A stretch of DNA of 64,000 nucleotides from Candidatus Omnitrophota bacterium (GCA_043814315.1 JBDRKE010000023.1:15576-79575), one strand, 5' to 3'. Shown: positions 5,450 to 55,435, counted from the first letter of the stretch. Translations and numbers: made by a program. Notes: generated by a model from the sequence alone, not told the origin.

Positions 5450-5551
5450 AAAATTCCGAATTCCAAACGCCAAATTCCAAACACAGAGCTTCGGACATTG
5501 GGATTTGTTTGGGATTTGTTTGGGATTTGTGATTTGTAATTTGGGATTTTT
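5450..5551. repeat. Word-built imperfect hairpin (ccaaa / tttggg words), rplV|rpsC gap
   Basis: A/C-rich arm aaattccgaattccaaacgccaaattccaaacac opposite the tandem ttgggatttgt x3 arm. Confidence 0.85.
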
Positions 5552-5897: not shown

Positions 5898-6157
5898 TTA
5901 ATGAGCGCTAAACTTACGAAAGCACGAAGTGCAACGTAAGTTTATGCGCGAATTAACCCCCCACCACTTTTTAAATACACTTGAGATATCTTACGGTATT
6001 GCTCCCCCTCCTACCCCATTCTGTAAATCACACGCTTGTTACAAAAAGTGGTGGGGGGTAAGTTCAGACATAAATTTATGTTCGCTTGCCGCACAAGCGG
6101 CACACCGGCTGTTCCGATACAGCCGGGTGCTCGCTCCATAAATTTAGTCCTCACTTA
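5898..6157 (-). repeat. Junction element family 1, full copy (modules C-B-A), rpsS|rplV
   Basis: Shares TAAGTGAGGAC..., the ACCCCCCACCACTTTTT/AAAAAGTGGTGGGGGGT stem, and GCGCAT-AACTTACG..CGTAAGTT-AGCGCTCATTAA with the other copies. Confidence 0.9.
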
Positions 6158-6467: not shown

Positions 6468-6596
6468 CAAAATCCAAATGTCAAAGCACAAAGCTTAAAA
6501 TGCGCACAAAACACAAAATCCAAAACAATCAGGCTTTTATTAGGATTTTGAATTTTGAATTTATTTTGTGCTTTGAATTTTGTCATTTGAATTTAT
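6468..6596. repeat. Word-built imperfect hairpin (caaaat / attttg words), rplB|rpsS gap
   Basis: caaaatccaaatgtcaaagcacaaa... opposite ...tttgtgctttgaattttgtcatttgaattt. Confidence 0.85.
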
Positions 6597-7430: not shown

Positions 7431-7637
7431 TTTAATGAGCGCTTAACTTACGAACACAATAGTGTTCGTAAGTAAATGCGCGAATTAACCCCCCACCACT
7501 TTTGCTATAACCTATGCTATATTGAAAGTGGTGGGGGGTAAGTTCGGGCATAAATTTATGTTCGCTTGCCGCACAAGCGGCACACCGGCTGTTCCGATAC
7601 AGCCGGGTGCGCGCTCCATAAATTTAGCCCTCACTTA
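7431..7637 (-). repeat. Junction element family 1, copy with short module-B loop, rplW|rplB
   Basis: Same modules; the module-B loop is only about 20 nt; overlaps the rplW 3' end. Confidence 0.9.
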
Positions 7638-13270: not shown

Positions 13271-13539
13271 TTTTAATGAGCGCTTAACTTACGAATCCCG
13301 AAACTTCGGGATGAGTAAGTTAATGCGCGAATTAACCCCCCACCACTTTTTAAATACACTTGAGATTAAATCTTACGGTATATCTACCCCTCCCACCCCA
13401 TCTAACAAATCACGCGTTTGTTACAAAAAGTGGTGGGGGGTAAGTTCGGACATAAACTTATGTTCGCTTGCCGCAGGAGCGGCACACCGGCTGATCCGAT
13501 AAAGCCGGGTGCGCGCTCCATAAGTTTAGTCCTCACTTA
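13271..13539 (-). repeat. Junction element family 1, full copy, rpsG|fusA
   Basis: All three modules; the rpsG stop TAA is the first triplet of TAAGTGAGGAC. Confidence 0.9.
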
Positions 13540-14007: not shown

Positions 14008-14267
14008 TTTTAATGAGCGCTTAACTTACGCACACAATAGTGTGCGTAAGTTAATGCGCGAATTAACCCCCCACCACTTTTTAAATACACTTGAGATATC
14101 TTACGGTATTGCTCCCCCTCCCACCCCATTCTGTAAATCACACGCTTGTTACAAAAAGTGGTGGGGGGTAAGTTCGGACATAAACTTATGTTCGCTTGCC
14201 GCAGGATCGGCACACCGGCTGATCCGATAAAGCCGGGTGCGCGCTCCATAAGTTTAGTCCTCACTTA
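14008..14267 (-). repeat. Junction element family 1, full copy, rpsL|rpsG
   Basis: All three modules; near-identical to the 5898 copy in the module-B loop. Confidence 0.9.
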
Positions 14268-27786: not shown

Positions 27787-28851
27787 TCATGAGTTATCCT
27801 GAAGTATCTTGATGTACGCCTTCTTTTTGAGCCCATCAAGCCAATTCGAAAACTGCTCCTGCATTTTTAAATCGAAGAGATAGGCCTGGATTCTCACCTG
27901 GGCCTCTGAAAGGGTAAGTTGTCGCGGAGGTGTTATCTTGAGTAGTTTGAAAATGTAAAATTTGTTGTTGACTTTTAAGGGCTGAGAGTATTCGCCCGGA
28001 TTTAAGCTGCAGACCTTCTCTTCTATATCCTGGCGAAGCCCTCCATCGCGCTTAGCCACAATCTTATCGACTGTAAGAGGGAATCTTTTCTGTAAATCCT
28101 CCAATTTCTGTCCGGATCTAAACAGATTCTCGAACTCTCTGGCTGAGTCTTCCCTGTCTGTGTCCAGTATAACGATGTCGCATTCACGCTCTTCTCCAGT
28201 TACAAATTCCTTCATGTTTTTGTTATAAAAGGTCGTGACTTCATCGGGCCTGATCATGATTTTATCCTGGACGCTTTGCTCTACTATCATATACATAAGC
28301 ATTTGCTCCCGTATCTTCCTCTCCAGATCCGCCTGAACCAGGCCTTGTTTGGCTAAGTCATTCTGAAAATCTGCCTCCGAGGAGTAATGCCTTCTGATCT
28401 CGTTGATCTTTGCCTTGATCCTATTATCGTCTACCTTCACGTTTATGGCCTTGGCTTCCTGCAAAATAAGACGGTCCTCGATCAATTTCTCCAACAGATC
28501 CTTCCTTGTGGCCTCAATGCGTTTTTCGGCCTCGGCTTCATTATATTCCCTGGACAGCTGCAGCTGTGTAAAATTGAAAAAATCATTCAGGTCCCTCTGG
28601 GTAATTGCCTCGTTATTGACGACGGCAACGATTTTATCCTGCGCATAAACGGTAGAAATTCCAAATACAAAATTCCAAATAAGCACCAATACCCAAATGA
28701 CCAAAAAACGAAACTTAAAATAATGAAAAATTGGGATTTGGGTACCTCGACTCCGCTCGATACCAATGGTGAACGAAGTCGATCCATTGGAATTGGCATT
28801 TGTTTGGGATTTGGGATTTGGAAATTTGGATTTTAAGAAGTGATTAGTCAT
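27787..28851 (-). CDS. surA: SurA-like periplasmic chaperone / parvulin-type PPIase
   Basis: Signal-peptide-like VIWVLVLIWNFVFGISTVYA, SurA-N-like helical region and one parvulin-like domain; surA-pdxA-rsmA synteny. The first ~45 codons are repeat words, so the true start is probably downstream (e.g. TTG 28704). Confidence 0.6.
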   Translation of the reverse strand: MTNHFLKSKFPNPKSQTNANSNGSTSFTIGIERSRGTQIPIFHYFKFRFLVIWVLVLIWNFVFGISTVYAQDKIVAVVNNEAITQRDLNDFFNFTQLQLSREYNEAEAEKRIEATRKDLLEKLIEDRLILQEAKAINVKVDDNRIKAKINEIRRHYSSEADFQNDLAKQGLVQADLERKIREQMLMYMIVEQSVQDKIMIRPDEVTTFYNKNMKEFVTGEERECDIVILDTDREDSAREFENLFRSGQKLEDLQKRFPLTVDKIVAKRDGGLRQDIEEKVCSLNPGEYSQPLKVNNKFYIFKLLKITPPRQLTLSEAQVRIQAYLFDLKMQEQFSNWLDGLKKKAYIKILQDNS

Positions 28852-33176: not shown

Positions 33177-33281
33177 GCTTACTCCTTAATTTTAAGAAAA
33201 TATAATAATACGTGCAACCTCAAATCCCAATGACTAAAACTTACTGTTTGTGCTTTGGAATTTGTTTGTAATTTGAAGCTT

Positions 33282-33334
33282 GCCCCGTTAGAAATTTTGA
33301 ACGACAATTGGTTAAGAAAATATTTTTAACGGGC
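33282..33334. repeat. Related gccccgttagaaa ... tttttaacgggc hairpin in the secDF|yajC gap
   Basis: Imperfect inverted repeat sharing the cccgtta core. Confidence 0.7.
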
Positions 33335-36724: not shown

Positions 36725-36845
36725 AAATTCAAATGACAAAATCCAAAATTCAAAACAAATCCAAAATTCAAAACAAAAGATTTTCGATTTTTGATTTTGT
36801 GCTTTGTGCTTATTTTGTGCTTTGTTATTTGTTATTTGGATTTAT
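36725..36845. repeat. Word-built hairpin (caaaat / ttttg words), lipoprotein|hisF gap
   Basis: aaattcaaatgacaaaatccaaaattcaaaacaaatccaaaattcaaaac opposite gattttgtgctttgtgcttattttgtgctttgttatttg. Confidence 0.8.
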
Positions 36846-38742: not shown

Positions 38743-38761
38743 GTGTCATATAATTCAGAAT

Positions 38762-38820
38762 CCAGAAACCAGTCCTTCGACTACGCTCAGGACTGGCACT
38801 GAGCAGAGTCGAAGTGCCAG
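38762..38820. repeat. Palindromic repeat family 3, hisB|hisH gap
   Basis: 59 nt identical to the reverse complement of 42618-42676 (checked base by base). Confidence 0.9.
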
Positions 38821-38854
38821 TAACCAGATAGCGGTAATTATTTTCAACAGTAAC

Positions 38855-39501: not shown

Positions 39502-39525
39502 CAAGATCGGGTCTTGTAACTCATT
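39502..39525. repeat. 24-bp repeat caagatcgggtcttgtaactcatt in the hisD|hisB gap
   Basis: Identical to the reverse complement of 46924-46947. Confidence 0.85.
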
Positions 39526-39559
39526 GCCTATCAATCTGTTTCAAGTCCCGGTCTTGAAT

Positions 39560-40786: not shown

Positions 40787-43455
40787 CTTGGGATTTGCCT
40801 GATAGCCGCTTTTAATTTTTCGAGTGCATTTTTGTAATTTTGAGGCTTACTGCCTCCTGCCTGCGCAAAATCCTTTCTTCCCCCGCCGCTGCCCCCGATC
40901 TCGGACGCTACCTCTTTAATAAGCCTTGAGGCATCCACACCTTTGGCGCATAAGTCCTGCGTCACCCCTATAGCCAACCAGATCTTGGCTTCTGCGCAAG
41001 TGCTTGAAATAATAATCGCATTCGTGGTTTTCTCCTTCGCTAAATCTACGCTTTGGCGTAAGGTATTCATGTCTAAATCCGGCTCATTTTGCTCAATCAA
41101 TTTTATGCCATTGATCAACTCGGCTTTTTGAATCGATTCCTCAAGGGATAAGCGTACCGTATTAAGGCGCTGGGCGCTTAATTGTTTCTCCAGTTCCTTT
41201 AAGCGAACCATTCTCTTCTCGATCTCCTGGGATAAATTCGGCTCAGGGACGCTTAATCTCTCGGCGATATCTCTGACAACACGCTCCTCTTCTTTGATAA
41301 TCTTATAGGCGGTTTTTCCCGTAACCGCTTCGATTCTTCTTATGCCGCTGGCCACAGACCCTTCCTGGGTTATCTTAAACAGGCCGATTGAGCCCGTAGA
41401 GTCCAGATGGGTTCCGCCACACAGTTCCTTAGAGAAGTCTCCGACACTCACCACACGCACCTTATCTTCGTATTTTTCGCCGAAGAAAGCCAATGCCCCT
41501 GACTTCTTGGCTTGCGCTAAAGCCATTGGCTTGACAGAAAGCTGATGGTTATTCAGGATATAATCATTAACCACTTCTTCAATTCTGTCCAGCTCTTCTT
41601 TTTTGATATCCTTAAAGTGCGTGAAGTCAAAACGCAATCTGTCGTGGGCCACCAGAGAGCCCCGCTGTTTGACGTGCGAGCCTAAAACCTTTCTTAAAGC
41701 CGCCTGCAAAAGGTGGGTTGCCGTATGGTTTCTGGCTATGGAGAGCCGGCGTTCGACATCGGCTTTTGCCAAGATGGTATCATTTTTTTTGAAGCTGCCG
41801 GATTTGACTTTTCCGATATGGACGAAGCAAGAGCCGAACCTCTTCGTATCAAAAACCTCAAAAACATTCCTTCCCTTAATAATCTCACCCGCATCTCCTA
41901 CCTGGCCGCCTGACTCTGCATAGAAAGGAGTCTTATCCAATACCAGGACTGCTTCATCCTGTTGGCTGATCTTTTTTGTTTCAGTATCGCCCTTGACTAT
42001 TTTCAATATCTTTGTTTTTAGAGCCATCTCCTTATAGCCTGAAAATTGAGTCGCTTTGACGTGGTAAAGCAGGTCCTTATCGCTAAAGACATCCCCTTTC
42101 ATGGCGCTTTGCAGCTTGGAGCGCTTTTTCTGCTCTGAAAGTTCCTTTTCTAGTATGTCTTTAGAAATTTGAATGCCTTTTTTTTCTAGCCAATTCAACG
42201 TCAAATCTAAAGGCATCCCATGGGTATCATATAGCTGAAAAGTAATCCTGCCAACCTCCTTGGGGTTGGGGCTGTCCTGAAACCCTTTAAATTTTTCATG
42301 CAAAAGGGCTTCGCTGGAATTTAATGTTGCCAGAAAACTCTTCTCTTCCGCCTGGATAATCTCAGAGATATTCTCCTGCCGGCCCCTGAGTTCGGGATAA
42401 TAAGATTTCATGGTCTCCGCTACGACAGGCACCAATTTATACAGAAAGGCATGCGCCCACCCCATGGCCCTTAAATGCAGGGTGCACTTACGGATCAGTT
42501 TTCTTATCACGTAACCCCTGGCTTCATTGGAAGGCAGGACTCCGTCATAAATGGCAAACACTATGGCACGGATATGGTCGGTTACTGCATAAATCAATTC
42601 TTTCTGGTTCCTGGTTCCTGGCACTTCGACTCTGCTCAGTGCCAGTCCTGAGCGTAGTCGAAGGACTGGTTTCTGGTTTCTGGCTATTTCTTTTATAATC
42701 GGGATAAACAAATCCGTCTCAAAATTATTCGCTACCCCCTGCATGACCGCAGCCAGCCTCTCTAAACCCATACCGGTGTCTATATTCTTCCTGGGCAAAG
42801 GCTCTAATACGCCTCCTTCTTTGCGGTTAAACTGGGTAAAGACGAGGTTCCAGACTTCCACAAAACGCCCGCAGCCGCAGGCAGGAGAACAATCCGGCTT
42901 CCCGCATCCGGCGCCTGAGCCTACATCATAAAATATCTCCGAGCAGGGGCCACAGGGGCCATTAGGCCCTTTTGCCTTAGCCTCTGAAGGCCAGAAATTT
43001 TCTTTATCCCCTAATCTGATGATTTTGTTTTCCGGAATCTCAATGGAATCGCGCCATATCTTATAGGTTTCGTCATCGTCTTTATAGACCGAGACCCAAA
43101 GCTTCTCGGACGGAATACGTAGTTCCCGGGCCAAAAATTCCCAGGCGTAGAGAATCGCTTCTTTTTTGAAATAGTCTCCGAAGGAAAAGTTTCCCAGCAT
43201 TTCAAAAAACGTGTGGTGACCGCTGGTCTTGCCGACTTTATCCAGGTCATCGGTGCGCAGGCACCGCTGGCTGGAGGAAGCACGCTTCAAGCCTCTGCCT
43301 ATCCCCAGAAATTCTTTCTTGAATTGATTCATTCCCGCAGGCGTAAACAATACCGTAGGGTCATCCCCGGGGATCAAAGAGCCACTCTCGATAATCTTGT
43401 GATTTTTTGATTTAAAAAAATCTAAAAACTTTTTTCTTAAGATATCTGCCTGCAT
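40783..43455 (-). CDS. alaS: Alanine--tRNA ligase
   Basis: 890 aa with class II core (FTPAGMNQFK, RCLRTDD), editing-domain HTATHLL and C-terminal DHHA1-like region. Contains an in-frame repeat insertion at 42604-42684. Confidence 0.95.
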   Translation of the reverse strand: MQADILRKKFLDFFKSKNHKIIESGSLIPGDDPTVLFTPAGMNQFKKEFLGIGRGLKRASSSQRCLRTDDLDKVGKTSGHHTFFEMLGNFSFGDYFKKEAILYAWEFLARELRIPSEKLWVSVYKDDDETYKIWRDSIEIPENKIIRLGDKENFWPSEAKAKGPNGPCGPCSEIFYDVGSGAGCGKPDCSPACGCGRFVEVWNLVFTQFNRKEGGVLEPLPRKNIDTGMGLERLAAVMQGVANNFETDLFIPIIKEIARNQKPVLRLRSGLALSRVEVPGTRNQKELIYAVTDHIRAIVFAIYDGVLPSNEARGYVIRKLIRKCTLHLRAMGWAHAFLYKLVPVVAETMKSYYPELRGRQENISEIIQAEEKSFLATLNSSEALLHEKFKGFQDSPNPKEVGRITFQLYDTHGMPLDLTLNWLEKKGIQISKDILEKELSEQKKRSKLQSAMKGDVFSDKDLLYHVKATQFSGYKEMALKTKILKIVKGDTETKKISQQDEAVLVLDKTPFYAESGGQVGDAGEIIKGRNVFEVFDTKRFGSCFVHIGKVKSGSFKKNDTILAKADVERRLSIARNHTATHLLQAALRKVLGSHVKQRGSLVAHDRLRFDFTHFKDIKKEELDRIEEVVNDYILNNHQLSVKPMALAQAKKSGALAFFGEKYEDKVRVVSVGDFSKELCGGTHLDSTGSIGLFKITQEGSVASGIRRIEAVTGKTAYKIIKEEERVVRDIAERLSVPEPNLSQEIEKRMVRLKELEKQLSAQRLNTVRLSLEESIQKAELINGIKLIEQNEPDLDMNTLRQSVDLAKEKTTNAIIISSTCAEAKIWLAIGVTQDLCAKGVDASRLIKEVASEIGGSGGGRKDFAQAGGSKPQNYKNALEKLKAAIRQIPR
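42618..42676. repeat. Palindromic repeat family 3 copy inside the alaS coding sequence
   Basis: 59/59 match to the reverse complement of 38762-38820; read in frame by alaS. Confidence 0.9.
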
Positions 43456-46853: not shown

Positions 46854-46892
46854 ATAGACGCAGGAATAAAGCAAATCTAACGAAAAAATTTT

Positions 46893-47002
46893 CAAGATCG
46901 GGTCTTGACATCGCTTGGTAAACAATGAGTTACAAGACCCGATCTTGACATAACTCTAAAGACCCGGTCTTGACATAACTCTACGATCTTGACATAACTC
47001 TA
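46893..47002 (+). repeat. 15-bp inverted repeat followed by three tandem cttgacataactcta units
   Basis: caagatcgggtcttg (46893-46907) / caagacccgatcttg (46933-46947). TTGACA occurs at 46905, 46945, 46970 and 46989. Confidence 0.85.
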
Positions 47003-51948: not shown

Positions 51949-52467
51949 TTAATTCTGGGTAAATACACTTCCCGTTGATGCCGTGTATACGATATTGCCT
52001 GTTACCCCGGGCGTTAGCGGCTCAGCTGAAAAGGCGTAGCCGGAGGCATCAGAAACGCAGGAGTAGCTGTATCCTTTAACCTCTGATTTTGCTCCGTCAA
52101 GATCTGAACAGTAAACAGAAACAGGGTTCAAGAATTCCTGGAACTCACTGACCGTGACAGGATAATGGGCCCGGGAGGCCATTAAGGTTTCCGCAGCCAC
52201 AGAAAGAATCCGAATGTTGCTTCTTGCAGCTGTCTCATTGGCTGCCCTTTTCATGGTAATCAGGCTAGGAATAGCTATCGCCGTCAGAATGGCGATAATG
52301 CTGACCGTAATCATGATTTCGACTAAAGTAAACCCCGTTACACCCCGCCCTAAAGGTCGGGTCCCGTTACAAAGCCATTCATCCGCGGCCTGAAGACCGC
52401 GGCTTTCTGGGTGTAACGGGGTAAAGGCTTCAGATAATTTTTTATTAAAAGGTACGATTTTAGGCAT
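51949..52467 (-). CDS. Type IV pilin / type II secretion pseudopilin-like protein (prepilin N-terminal motif)
   Basis: G|FTLVEIMITVSIIAILTAIAIPSL class III signal motif; unusually long 45-aa leader that contains a MITE-like insertion. Confidence 0.75.
   Translation of the reverse strand: MPKIVPFNKKLSEAFTPLHPESRGLQAADEWLCNGTRPLGRGVTGFTLVEIMITVSIIAILTAIAIPSLITMKRAANETAARSNIRILSVAAETLMASRAHYPVTVSEFQEFLNPVSVYCSDLDGAKSEVKGYSYSCVSDASGYAFSAEPLTPGVTGNIVYTASTGSVFTQN
52333..52421. mobile_element. MITE-like 89-bp element in the prepilin leader region
   Basis: Perfect 13-bp terminal inverted repeats ccccgttacaccc/gggtgtaacgggg, flanked by TAAA on both sides (52329-52332 and 52422-52425). Confidence 0.75.
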
Positions 52468-52489: not shown

Positions 52490-52517
52490 ATTATATTACC
52501 CTTATTTATTATGTAAA
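52490..52517 (-). promoter_or_regulatory. Candidate promoter of the prepilin gene
   Basis: Minus strand reads TTTACA-16 nt-TATAAT. Confidence 0.4.
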
Positions 52518-54290: not shown

Positions 54291-54401
54291 CTTAGCAAAT
54301 TCCAAGTACCAAGCTCCAAACTCCAAACTTTTATTTCGGTCATTGAGATTTCGGTTATTGGAGCTTGTTTGGGATTTGGAATTTGAAATCTGGGATTTAA
54401 C
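54291..54401. repeat. Word-built hairpin (ctccaaa / tttggag words), etfB|etfA gap
   Basis: caaattccaagtaccaagctccaaactccaaac opposite ttggagcttgtttgggatttggaatttgaaatctgggattt. Confidence 0.8.
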
Positions 54402-55184: not shown

Positions 55185-55435
55185 TAATGAGCAGATAACT
55201 TATATCGTTCTTAAGAACGATATAAGTTATAGCGTCCCTTATTTTATTTGTTTATCAGCGTCTGCGAATTAACCCCCCACCACTTTTTGAACAGACGCTT
55301 GAGATAAAATTTACGGTATGGCTTTTCCCCACGCCATATTTAACAAAACCCTCACTAGCTACAAAAAGTGGTGGGGGGTAAGTTCGGCCAGACAACTTAA
55401 CTTCACTATCGTTCGTTAAGTTGTGGCCTTACTTA
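55185..55435 (-). repeat. Junction element family 1, divergent full copy, acyl-CoA DH|etfB
   Basis: Same module-B stem; modules A and C have different sequence but the same hairpin positions. Confidence 0.85.

Follow-up and report, generated by a model that had tools for sequence, protein, structure and literature searches.

Classical bacterial MITEs (miniature transposable elements bounded by inverted repeats) such as Correia, RUP and Nezha mostly have TA or other duplications at their ends, are mainly intergenic and occur in both orientations. MITEs lying in frame inside bacterial genes have also been described, among them the Rickettsia palindromic elements (RPEs), ERIC, BOX and the Anabaena MITEs, which are translated within the host protein and some of which carry an open frame (PMC10969869). 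Here we describe an in-frame insertion in a stretch of 64,000 nucleotides (nt) from Candidatus Omnitrophota bacterium (hereafter the window, with positions counted from its first letter): an 89-nt element with 13-nt terminal inverted repeats (TIRs), which lies in the leader of a type IV prepilin gene. The Omnitrophota are ultra-small and probably host-dependent bacteria, type IVa pilus genes are near-universal among them, and these genes are thought to mediate attachment to the host (PMC10066038). The main result, which is new relative to an initial annotation of the window made from the sequence alone, is that the family to which this element belongs has inserted repeatedly at the codons of the prepilin cleavage site, and that the end of the element regenerates the cleavage motif. 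The literature that we searched mentions neither MITEs within prepilin leaders nor any repeat elements from Omnitrophota.

An 89-nt insertion in a prepilin leader

The host gene is an open reading frame (ORF) on the minus strand whose translation reads MPKIVPFNKKLSEA-FTPLHPESRGLQAADEWLCNGTRPLGRGVTG-FTLVEIMITVSIIA…, with the mature part starting at FTLVEIM; the protein is identical to P0001, a protein of an Omnitrophota metagenome-assembled genome (MAG) at NCBI that bears the annotation prepilin-type cleavage/methylation domain protein, although a look-up by exact sequence returned no record for either of the two. The Pfam model N_methyl aligns to residues 44-66 with 25.4 bits, against a cutoff of 21.2, and the cleavage/methylation motif is present as G45|F46 T47 L48 V49 E50, with Glu at +5, followed by the hydrophobic helix. 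The leader has 45 amino acids (aa) and ends in Gly45, well above the usual short basic leader of about 6-25 aa; this length is due to the insertion, since orthologues have a leader of 14 aa. The features of the gene and of the element are as follows, all on the minus strand.

52490..52517: promoter-like site TTTACA-16-TATAAT (11/12) upstream of the pilin start codon, a consensus match only
51949..52467: host gene for a type IV prepilin-like protein of 172 aa (141 aa without the insertion), from the ORF and Pfam N_methyl
52426..52467: native leader codons 1-14 (MPKIVPFNKKLSEA), with Ala14 as the native -1 residue, from the alignment with orthologues, which have a leader of equal length ending KA|FTLVEIM
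52422..52425: upstream copy of the target-site duplication, read as TTTA along the gene and as TAAA on the plus strand, single TTTA in the empty site of loci L023/L024
52333..52421: 89-nt MITE copy (subfamily A, deletion derivative) coding in frame for T16 (part) to G45, from profile, repeat and family comparison
52409..52421: 5' TIR when read along the gene (CCCCGTTACACCC on the minus strand)
52383..52402: GC-rich hairpin 1 of the interior (along the gene, CCGCGGTC-TTCA-GGCCGCGG), from the inverted repeat, folds and family covariation
52363..52371: third, internal copy of the TIR core (CCCGTTACA on the plus strand), a remnant of a 27-nt palindrome that L101 and L007 still have intact
52343..52361: internal hairpin 2, which overlaps the 3' TIR at its inner edge, from folds and family covariation
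52333..52345: 3' TIR when read along the gene (GGGTGTAACGGGG on the minus strand), encoding G-V-T-G
52329..52332: downstream copy of the target-site duplication, giving Phe46 (TTT) and the first base of Thr47, the +1/+2 residues of the mature pilin
51949..52332: mature pilin coding region (FTLVEIM..., 127 aa) and stop codon

Read along the plus strand, the order is taaa (52329-52332), CCCCGTTACACCC (52333-52345), 63 nt, GGGTGTAACGGGG (52409-52421) and taaa (52422-52425). The TIRs are perfect over 13 nt; the repeat search reports 14-nt arms that are 100% complementary and separated by 63 nt, since the adjacent A/T pair as well. A simple calculation of ours gives roughly 0.1 chance occurrences per 64 kb for a perfect inverted repeat of 13 nt within about 100 nt, and the inverted repeat of the window is not a chance feature; its termini also recur in 20 genome loci and 73 metagenome loci. 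A profile built from 25 family members (nhmmer) has its sole match in the window at the pilin copy (E=6.9e-21). The element together with one 4-nt repeat makes 93 nt, or 31 codons, and its 3' TIR encodes G-V-T-G, so that the TIR (ACG GGG) supplies Gly(-1), that is Gly45. The initial annotation had proposed an 89-bp element with perfect 13-bp TIRs and TAAA flanks in frame in a prepilin leader, and its coordinates and sequence are confirmed; the 31 codons, the 45-aa leader and the Gly(-1) contributed by the TIR, which it had also put forward, are borne out by the ORF and by Pfam N_methyl.

Comparison with orthologous genes provided the direct evidence for an insertion. The orthologous pilins P0002-P0008 (76-81% identity over the mature part, 140-142 aa) are without exactly the 31-aa block, and their leaders end in KA|FTLVEIM (M..K.......KA|FTLVEIM), matching the predicted excision product MPKIVPFNKKLSEA|FTLVE; the initial annotation had anticipated this product, and it agrees with the native architecture of the orthologues. 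The genes stand in the same neighbourhood, since the order ETF-beta, ETF-alpha/Fer4, PilZ, pilin, HTH_17 and SMC is common to the window and to four loci encoding two of the orthologues. At the DNA level the empty site of the orthologous loci reads AAGGCC-TTTA-CCTTGG (with TTCA in L021/L022), and the filled site of the window reads GAAGCC-TTTA-[89 nt]-TTTA-CTTTAG; the empty sites that one would look for in relatives were thus found in syntenic orthologues, with a single TTTA. The window element is an insertion with a 4-nt target-site duplication. The native -1 residue in this clade of pilins (the window gene, P0002-P0008 and P0013-P0014) is Ala, or Ser in some, compared with a near-universal Gly.

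A second empty-site test was provided by pilin P0017 (MTNKG-[36 aa]-FTLLEIL), whose extra leader is absent from 9 of its 10 nearest homologues (47-60% identity; e.g., MNRKG|FTLLEIL). The homologue P0083 (L222, 46-135) reads …SLTG|FT at the end of a long leader of 41 aa, whose right edge is TCTAACGGGG-TTTACT; no left TIR is recognizable, and this leader may be a decayed copy of the element. In P0079 (L223, 511-527), another homologue of P0017, the leader reads …KKG-FLMG-FTLLE; its 12 extra nt TTTCTAATGGGA resemble the target-site duplication plus …TAACGGGG and may be the footprint of an excision or of a deletion.

The element is small and has no transposase ORF (89 nt here and 76-104 nt in the family), its only open frame being a read-through of 30-36 codons. 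The feature is very probably a non-autonomous TIR element, as the initial annotation had read it, and its assignment to the MITEs is a putative one drawn only from structure and distribution.

An element family that recurs at prepilin cleavage sites

The family was collected by scanning species-representative genomes for both TIRs 50-78 nt apart, which gave 20 loci, and by a slightly relaxed scan of metagenomes, which added 73 loci; after removal of duplicates, 76 copies were retained in all. The family therefore counts about 76 non-redundant copies of 76-104 nt, nearly all from Omnitrophota: the 20 genome loci are mostly labelled Omnitrophota, some only 'uncultured bacterium' and one Parcubacteria. 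The further copies whose existence was to be checked after the initial annotation turned up in many Omnitrophota assemblies, with matching termini and TAAA/TTTA or TGAA/TTCA flanks and with several copies per genome, on 7 contigs of one MAG, 3 of another and 2 of a third. The 64-kb window itself holds one copy, other MAGs carrying 2-7 on different contigs. Elements that are 94-95% identical lie in unrelated contexts, which indicates that their spread is recent relative to the divergence of the genes. Rfam gave nothing at the gathering threshold (the match with the best E-value has 11 bits against a gathering score of 88), and a BLAST search of plasmids with the element gave no match.

At least two subfamilies could be defined. 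Subfamily A is 104 nt at full length, with derivatives of 76-103 nt and TTTA flanks; subfamily B is about 100 nt, has an interior unrelated to that of A and TTCA flanks; further singletons combine the same TIRs with unrelated interiors. Thus, the TIRs are conserved across the subfamilies while the internal sequence differs. The exhaustive protein search also brought in sister-family copies with compensatory changes in the TIRs, CCCCGTTAGACCC / GGGTCTAACGGGG in L100 and CCCCGTATAATCCC / GGGATATACGGGG in L098. The window copy derives from a variant with an internal 27-nt palindrome of TIR-like sequence, which is intact in L101 and L007. In L101 (588-668, 701-847) the prepilin gene of P0047 carries a 143-nt variant with this palindrome (CCCGTTACAAAAGACTTTTGTAACGGG), and the element is present there a second time, as a partial copy a short way upstream of the start codon of this gene. 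The L100 copy (2055-2166, TIR CCCCGTTAGACCC) interrupts a TPR protein in its Sec-type signal peptide, with the hydrophobic core on one side and the AFA|E cleavage site on the other, and this insertion should turn the signal peptide into an uncleaved membrane anchor. An occupied pilin gene was also seen on a contig labelled Parcubacteria GW2011_GWF2_45_11 (L011 / L048, LCKE01000030.1), with an element 94-95% identical to the Omnitrophota copies, which suggests either mis-binning or a transfer between phyla.

Some of the metagenome matches fell outside this family (L025, L056, L058 and L086, and also L038, L051, L061, L062, L073 and L088). Among these non-family matches, some consist of the 9-mer GTTACACCC in arrays that stand opposite inverted ones of GGGTGTAAC, which we regard as unrelated, and others are elements of about 97 nt ending in ACCCGTTACACCC…GGGTGTAACGGGT, with a further copy about 96 nt away.

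The pilin hosts were identified by translating each copy and by protein searches. A word-indexed search with a 41-aa consensus of the element peptide returned one match, its index being too coarse, and was replaced by an exhaustive HMMER search with P0038, an ORF encoded by the element, which added pilin hosts beyond those known from translation. In all, the element was seen in 18 prepilin-like genes at the junction of native leader and mature N-terminus, directly before FT[LF]xE, and all 18 copies have the same orientation and the same frame and stand between Gly(-1) and Phe(+1)-Thr(+2). In 10 of the 18, the native leader directly upstream is still of the classical kind with Gly as its last residue (MTNKG, MRRAG, MISRG, MKLSNKG, MKPRG and others). 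In the hosts other than the window gene, the whole leader is 41-60 aa long. Beyond the first 25 residues, BLASTP similarity exists only within {L004, L012, L082} and {P0044, P0046}, so that at least 15 unrelated pilin families have been hit. In L002 and L098, TTCA stands on both sides of the element and the Phe codon of the pilin is TTC: the repeat follows the host codon, from which we conclude that the four nucleotides are copied from the target at each event. The copies in L004, L012 and L082 diverge in a star-like way (63-69% among themselves, 77-86% to near-consensus copies), a pattern that does not decide between ancient and recurrent insertion.

This recurrence explains the odd, very long prepilin 'leaders' in Omnitrophota annotations and has a consequence for pilin prediction, namely that the true mature N-terminus would be the second G|FT and not the first. 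It also makes the element a candidate marker of strain-level variation in pilus genes.

Target preference, tolerance and competing explanations

The preference for this site can be read from the copies outside pilin genes. The target logo of the non-pilin copies of subfamily A shows TTTA followed by C (15/18), T (12/18) and T (10/18), and nothing is conserved in their left flank beyond TTTA; TTT-ACT-T is the spelling of Phe-Thr-Leu in an AT-rich genome. The window contains 163 TTTAC sites, 26 TTTACT sites and one prepilin N-terminus, and its sole element copy lies there. The frame of the element is also favorable, since the element and its repeat make 108 nt (36 codons) at full length and 102, 93 or 81 nt in the coding derivatives. 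The pilin frame is free of stops in 21 of 24 frame-keeping copies, compared with 1-5 stops in the other five frames of almost every copy, and only 1 of 17 full-length copies has a stop when 7.9 would be expected from randomly placed substitutions (P about 0.0005). The substitutions show no excess at third codon positions, thus giving no evidence for selection on the peptide sequence, and selection appears to act on the lack of stops and on DNA or RNA structure rather than on the peptide. At its end the element codes for the basic stretch …K-P-R-P-L-G-R-G-V-T-G, with Gly as the last residue.

About half of the subfamily-A copies are intragenic, and pilin sites make up 8 of the 26 copies of this subfamily ascertained from DNA. 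The other in-frame hosts were also hit at dispensable N-terminal positions: in the signal-peptide n-regions of DsbA-like and CAP-domain proteins, at sites after a signal peptide or a lipoprotein signal, and close to the start of two enzymes, after two residues in an FkbM methyltransferase and after ten in an AdoMet decarboxylase. The recurrence is best explained by a target preference for TTTA|C-T-(T) combined with the survival of only such coding insertions as are removed or tolerated, in leaders, n-regions of signal peptides and extreme N-termini; that processing accounts for the recurrence is something that we infer.

The route that we propose to a normal pilin has few steps. The element inserted at the TTTA within the codons for Phe(+1)-Thr(+2) and duplicated these four bases, and the event would be harmless because the element and the duplication together are a multiple of three and the element has one open frame. 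Its final codons (…Arg-Gly-Val-Thr-Gly) and the duplicated TTT-A rebuild Gly(-1)|Phe(+1)-Thr(+2) in front of an unchanged hydrophobic N-terminus with Glu(+5), and the 45-aa leader with its 31 extra codons would be cut by the prepilin peptidase as usual to give a normal mature pilin. What is observed comprises the insertion with its duplication and empty sites, the existence of a family that recurs at pilin sites, and the open frame; the long leader is presumably still removed by the prepilin peptidase, judging from its regenerated motif. As to the enzyme that moves the element, piggyBac has a TTAA duplication with rare TAAA or TCAA variants, and IS1380 transposases are its prokaryotic relatives (PMC10813416). 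The 4-bp duplication and the TIRs starting with CCC point by analogy to a DDE/DDD cut-and-paste transposase, possibly of the IS1380/piggyBac type.

Several observations weigh against one part or another of this explanation. The share of pilin sites exceeds the rough expectation from a TTTAC(T) preference plus tolerance, and a further factor may act, such as a longer target, positive selection, ascertainment or specialization. The deficit of stops becomes marginal when copies from non-coding contexts are taken alone (1 of 9 with a stop, 3.5 expected, P=0.06). A strong RNA structure early in the coding sequence could lower expression, which makes it less certain that the insertion is harmless: the RNA fold of the window element, 42 nt into the coding sequence, has -48.4 kcal/mol (z=-3.8), and the DNA fold has -26.6 kcal/mol. 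A scan of the 64-kb window for PilD-like (prepilin peptidase) motifs found none, and 587 kb of locus sequence contained no long pair of these TIRs that could mark an autonomous element. Finally, the orientation relative to the asymmetric target is near-fixed, in a ratio of 16:1 for the non-coding copies of subfamily A and 14:3 for subfamily B, which a simple symmetric DDE transpososome does not predict.

A tentative extension of the proposed route goes further. The MITE lineage may be specialized for prepilin leaders, its TTTA|CT target, fixed orientation, 36-codon open frame and basic …RPLGRGVTG end being a joint adaptation of a 'peptidase-spliced' selfish element, and the mobilizing enzyme would be orientation-specific, possibly IS1380/piggyBac-like and capable of seamless excision. 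If so, the element could settle in the Gly|Phe-Thr codons of whichever pilin gene it meets, and the host's prepilin peptidase would strip it from the protein, which would be a third route to phenotypic silence beside introns and inteins.

We consider it unlikely that the element has instead been co-opted in pilin genes, where its RNA structure or the extended leader would regulate translation, export or processing, or where precise excision, or inversion between the TIRs, would act as an on/off switch, all under positive selection. The pilin share above the simple expectation from target and tolerance fits such a role, as do the strong RNA fold, the occupation of all three homologous minor pilins L004, L012 and L082, the window copy open in both orientations of its internal segment and the one copy (L016) in inverted orientation. 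The peptide is not conserved, as the lack of a third-position excess indicates, and the closest orthologues of two of the hosts are without the element. Two side observations concern inversion: the window copy is stop-free in the pilin frame even with its internal segment inverted (TPLHPALKVGSRYKAIHPRPEDRGFLGVTG), and L016 (1985-2085) is the one subfamily-A copy whose interior is inverted relative to its TTTA flanks; inversion between the TIRs may therefore occur.

The hairpins bear on this alternative and on the mode of movement alike. Subfamily A combines the stem formed by the TIRs with a pair of GC-rich hairpins that have AGAAAG in front of each. Over 25 copies, 95% of the cells pair overall, and slid controls fall to 34-54%; hairpin 1 has compensatory changes at 5 of 8 pairs, with 91% of cells paired, and hairpin 2 shows covariation at 2 of 8 pairs, with 94% of cells paired. 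On the sense strand G-T wobbles outnumber A-C by 36 to 16, a weak hint that the sense strand, as RNA or as single-stranded DNA, may be the folded species. The compensatory changes and the wobble bias are in keeping with co-option; the hairpins are, however, kept in non-coding copies too and may serve transposition instead.

That the element moves by an orientation-specific mechanism, either of the IS200/IS605 single-strand type (HUH, as in PATEs) or through an IS110/IS492-type recombinase with TTTA as recognition or core sequence, is improbable. This mechanism would suit the near-fixed orientation at an asymmetric target, the covariation of the hairpins with its sense-strand wobble bias, and the two direct-repeat modules of AGAAAG plus GC-hairpin near both ends, the first hairpin lying 19 nt from the left end; we take this layout to resemble that of IS608. 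It does not suit the L002 and L098 copies, whose TTCA on both sides matches the TTC codon of the host, as a target duplication predicts, unlike a right end borne by the element. Elements of these types are without long perfect terminal inverted repeats, and the left flank here is not conserved. The near-fixed orientation at an asymmetric 4-nt duplication hints at an unrecognized transposition system in a poorly studied phylum.

Other candidates for the nature of the element fit poorly or were rejected. An origin as a PATE derived from IS200/IS605 calls for no duplication and for a right tetranucleotide owned by the element, and here the right repeat follows the host codon; the family has PATE-like features in its AGAAAG and hairpin modules and its near-fixed orientation, yet also perfect 13-nt TIRs, which are absent from IS200/IS605. 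REP sequences and REPINs, which are mobilized by RAYT, extragenic and without duplication, do not correspond, as judged by location and duplication, to a family with a duplication and with about half of its subfamily-A copies inside genes. The core motifs of hammerhead-like or other ribozymes were absent by eye, core and inverse-core-like motifs of an integron attC occur in the wrong order, and a scan within the element for intrinsic terminators found none. As for an autonomous partner, viral contigs scanned with a 14-mer, with 120 matches checked for pairs, gave chance single matches only.

It is also improbable that the insertion inactivated the window pilin, leaving the leader unprocessed or the protein not exported, in a young and undecayed pseudogene. 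The 45-aa leader is indeed beyond the usual range, the RNA structure early in the coding sequence is strong, and the perfect TIRs and duplication look recent. The ORF is nevertheless intact, with a mature part that keeps every residue invariant in the family, and the cleavage motif G|FTLVE with Glu+5 is regenerated; moreover, 18 independent pilin genes, all intact, have the same arrangement, and several of these hosts carry diverged elements (63-86% identity), implying long persistence. Finally, that the 31 codons are ancestral leader sequence, palindromic by accident, has only the intact reading frame in its favor and is already refuted by the empty sites, with seven orthologues (76-81% identity) in a matching gene neighbourhood showing a single TTTA without the segment and with the element sequence present also in non-coding DNA and in unrelated genes, the reverse of the picture (no other copies, and homologues carrying the segment) that the initial annotation had associated with an ancestral origin.

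Other repeats in the window and comparison with known systems

The window contains further repeats besides the pilin element. MITE-like repeats of another family (family 1) occur in five or more copies, at 5933-6082, 7469-7558, 13316-13460, 14047-14188 and 55265-55386, with inverted arms CGAATTAACCCCCCACCACTTTTT / AAAAAGTGGTGGGGGGTAAGTTCG about 70 nt apart and with ends unrelated to those of the pilin element. The initial annotation had seen a link between the two in their TAAA flanks, which is not supported: in family 1, TAAA stands beside one arm, is internal and is present in 3 of 5 copies only. An 87-nt inverted repeat, 90% complementary, has its arms 3.75 kb apart at 38756-38842 and 42596-42682, and it may delimit an insertion sequence or else a segment that is invertible or composite. 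Short intergenic tracts rich in GGGATTTG / TTTG were found at 5490-5550, 6544-6596, 28783-28835, 33247-33296, 36793-36845 and 54347-54399, the last between the two ETF genes. Palindrome repeats of CAAGATCGGGTCTTG lie at 39502-39558 and 46891-47002, with three tandem 25-nt units at 46934-47002.

Compared with known systems, the family of the pilin element is closest in habit to the RPEs and other intragenic MITEs, with which it shares small palindromic repeats lying in frame in coding genes and translated as part of the host protein. The RPEs, however, are spread over many sites in metabolic genes that are unrelated, and the mature protein retains them, whereas the Omnitrophota family has one dominant coding niche, the codons of the prepilin cleavage site, and the element itself supplies the residue that would let the host peptidase remove it. 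The two also differ in phylum, in the 13-nt TIRs and in the 4-nt TTYA duplication, a separation made by the descriptions of the RPEs and not by their sequences. With Correia (Neisseria), RUP and Nezha, the family has in common a length of about 100 nt, TIRs, a short duplication, multiple copies, internal deletion variants and the absence of a transposase; it departs from these classical MITEs in its near-fixed orientation relative to the asymmetric TTTAC target. The 4-bp target duplication and the TIRs beginning with CCC recall piggyBac and IS1380, but the duplication is TTTA/TTCA and not palindromic, and we take the resemblance, which is only that, as a lead to the enzyme and to a possible seamless excision.

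The likeness to inteins and self-splicing introns is one of functional analogy only: in each case a selfish coding insertion is present whose product is removed so that the host protein is restored, but removal here would be performed by the host prepilin peptidase at a motif rebuilt by the element, with no self-catalysis and no relation in sequence or structure. Type IVb prepilins have native leaders of about 15-30 aa. They resemble the occupied pilins by an unusually long, hydrophilic and partly basic leader with Gly before the hydrophobic N-terminus, whereas the length observed here (45 aa, and 41-60 aa in the other hosts) is due to a datable insertion absent from the orthologues, and it raises an enzymological question, that of the limit in leader length and structure which a prepilin peptidase accepts. 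The element would thus represent a new mode of tolerance inside genes, in which it occupies a part of the protein that is cut off and brings the cleavage residue along. In-frame intragenic MITEs were known already; what is new is a MITE family whose main coding niche is a leader peptide removed by the host.

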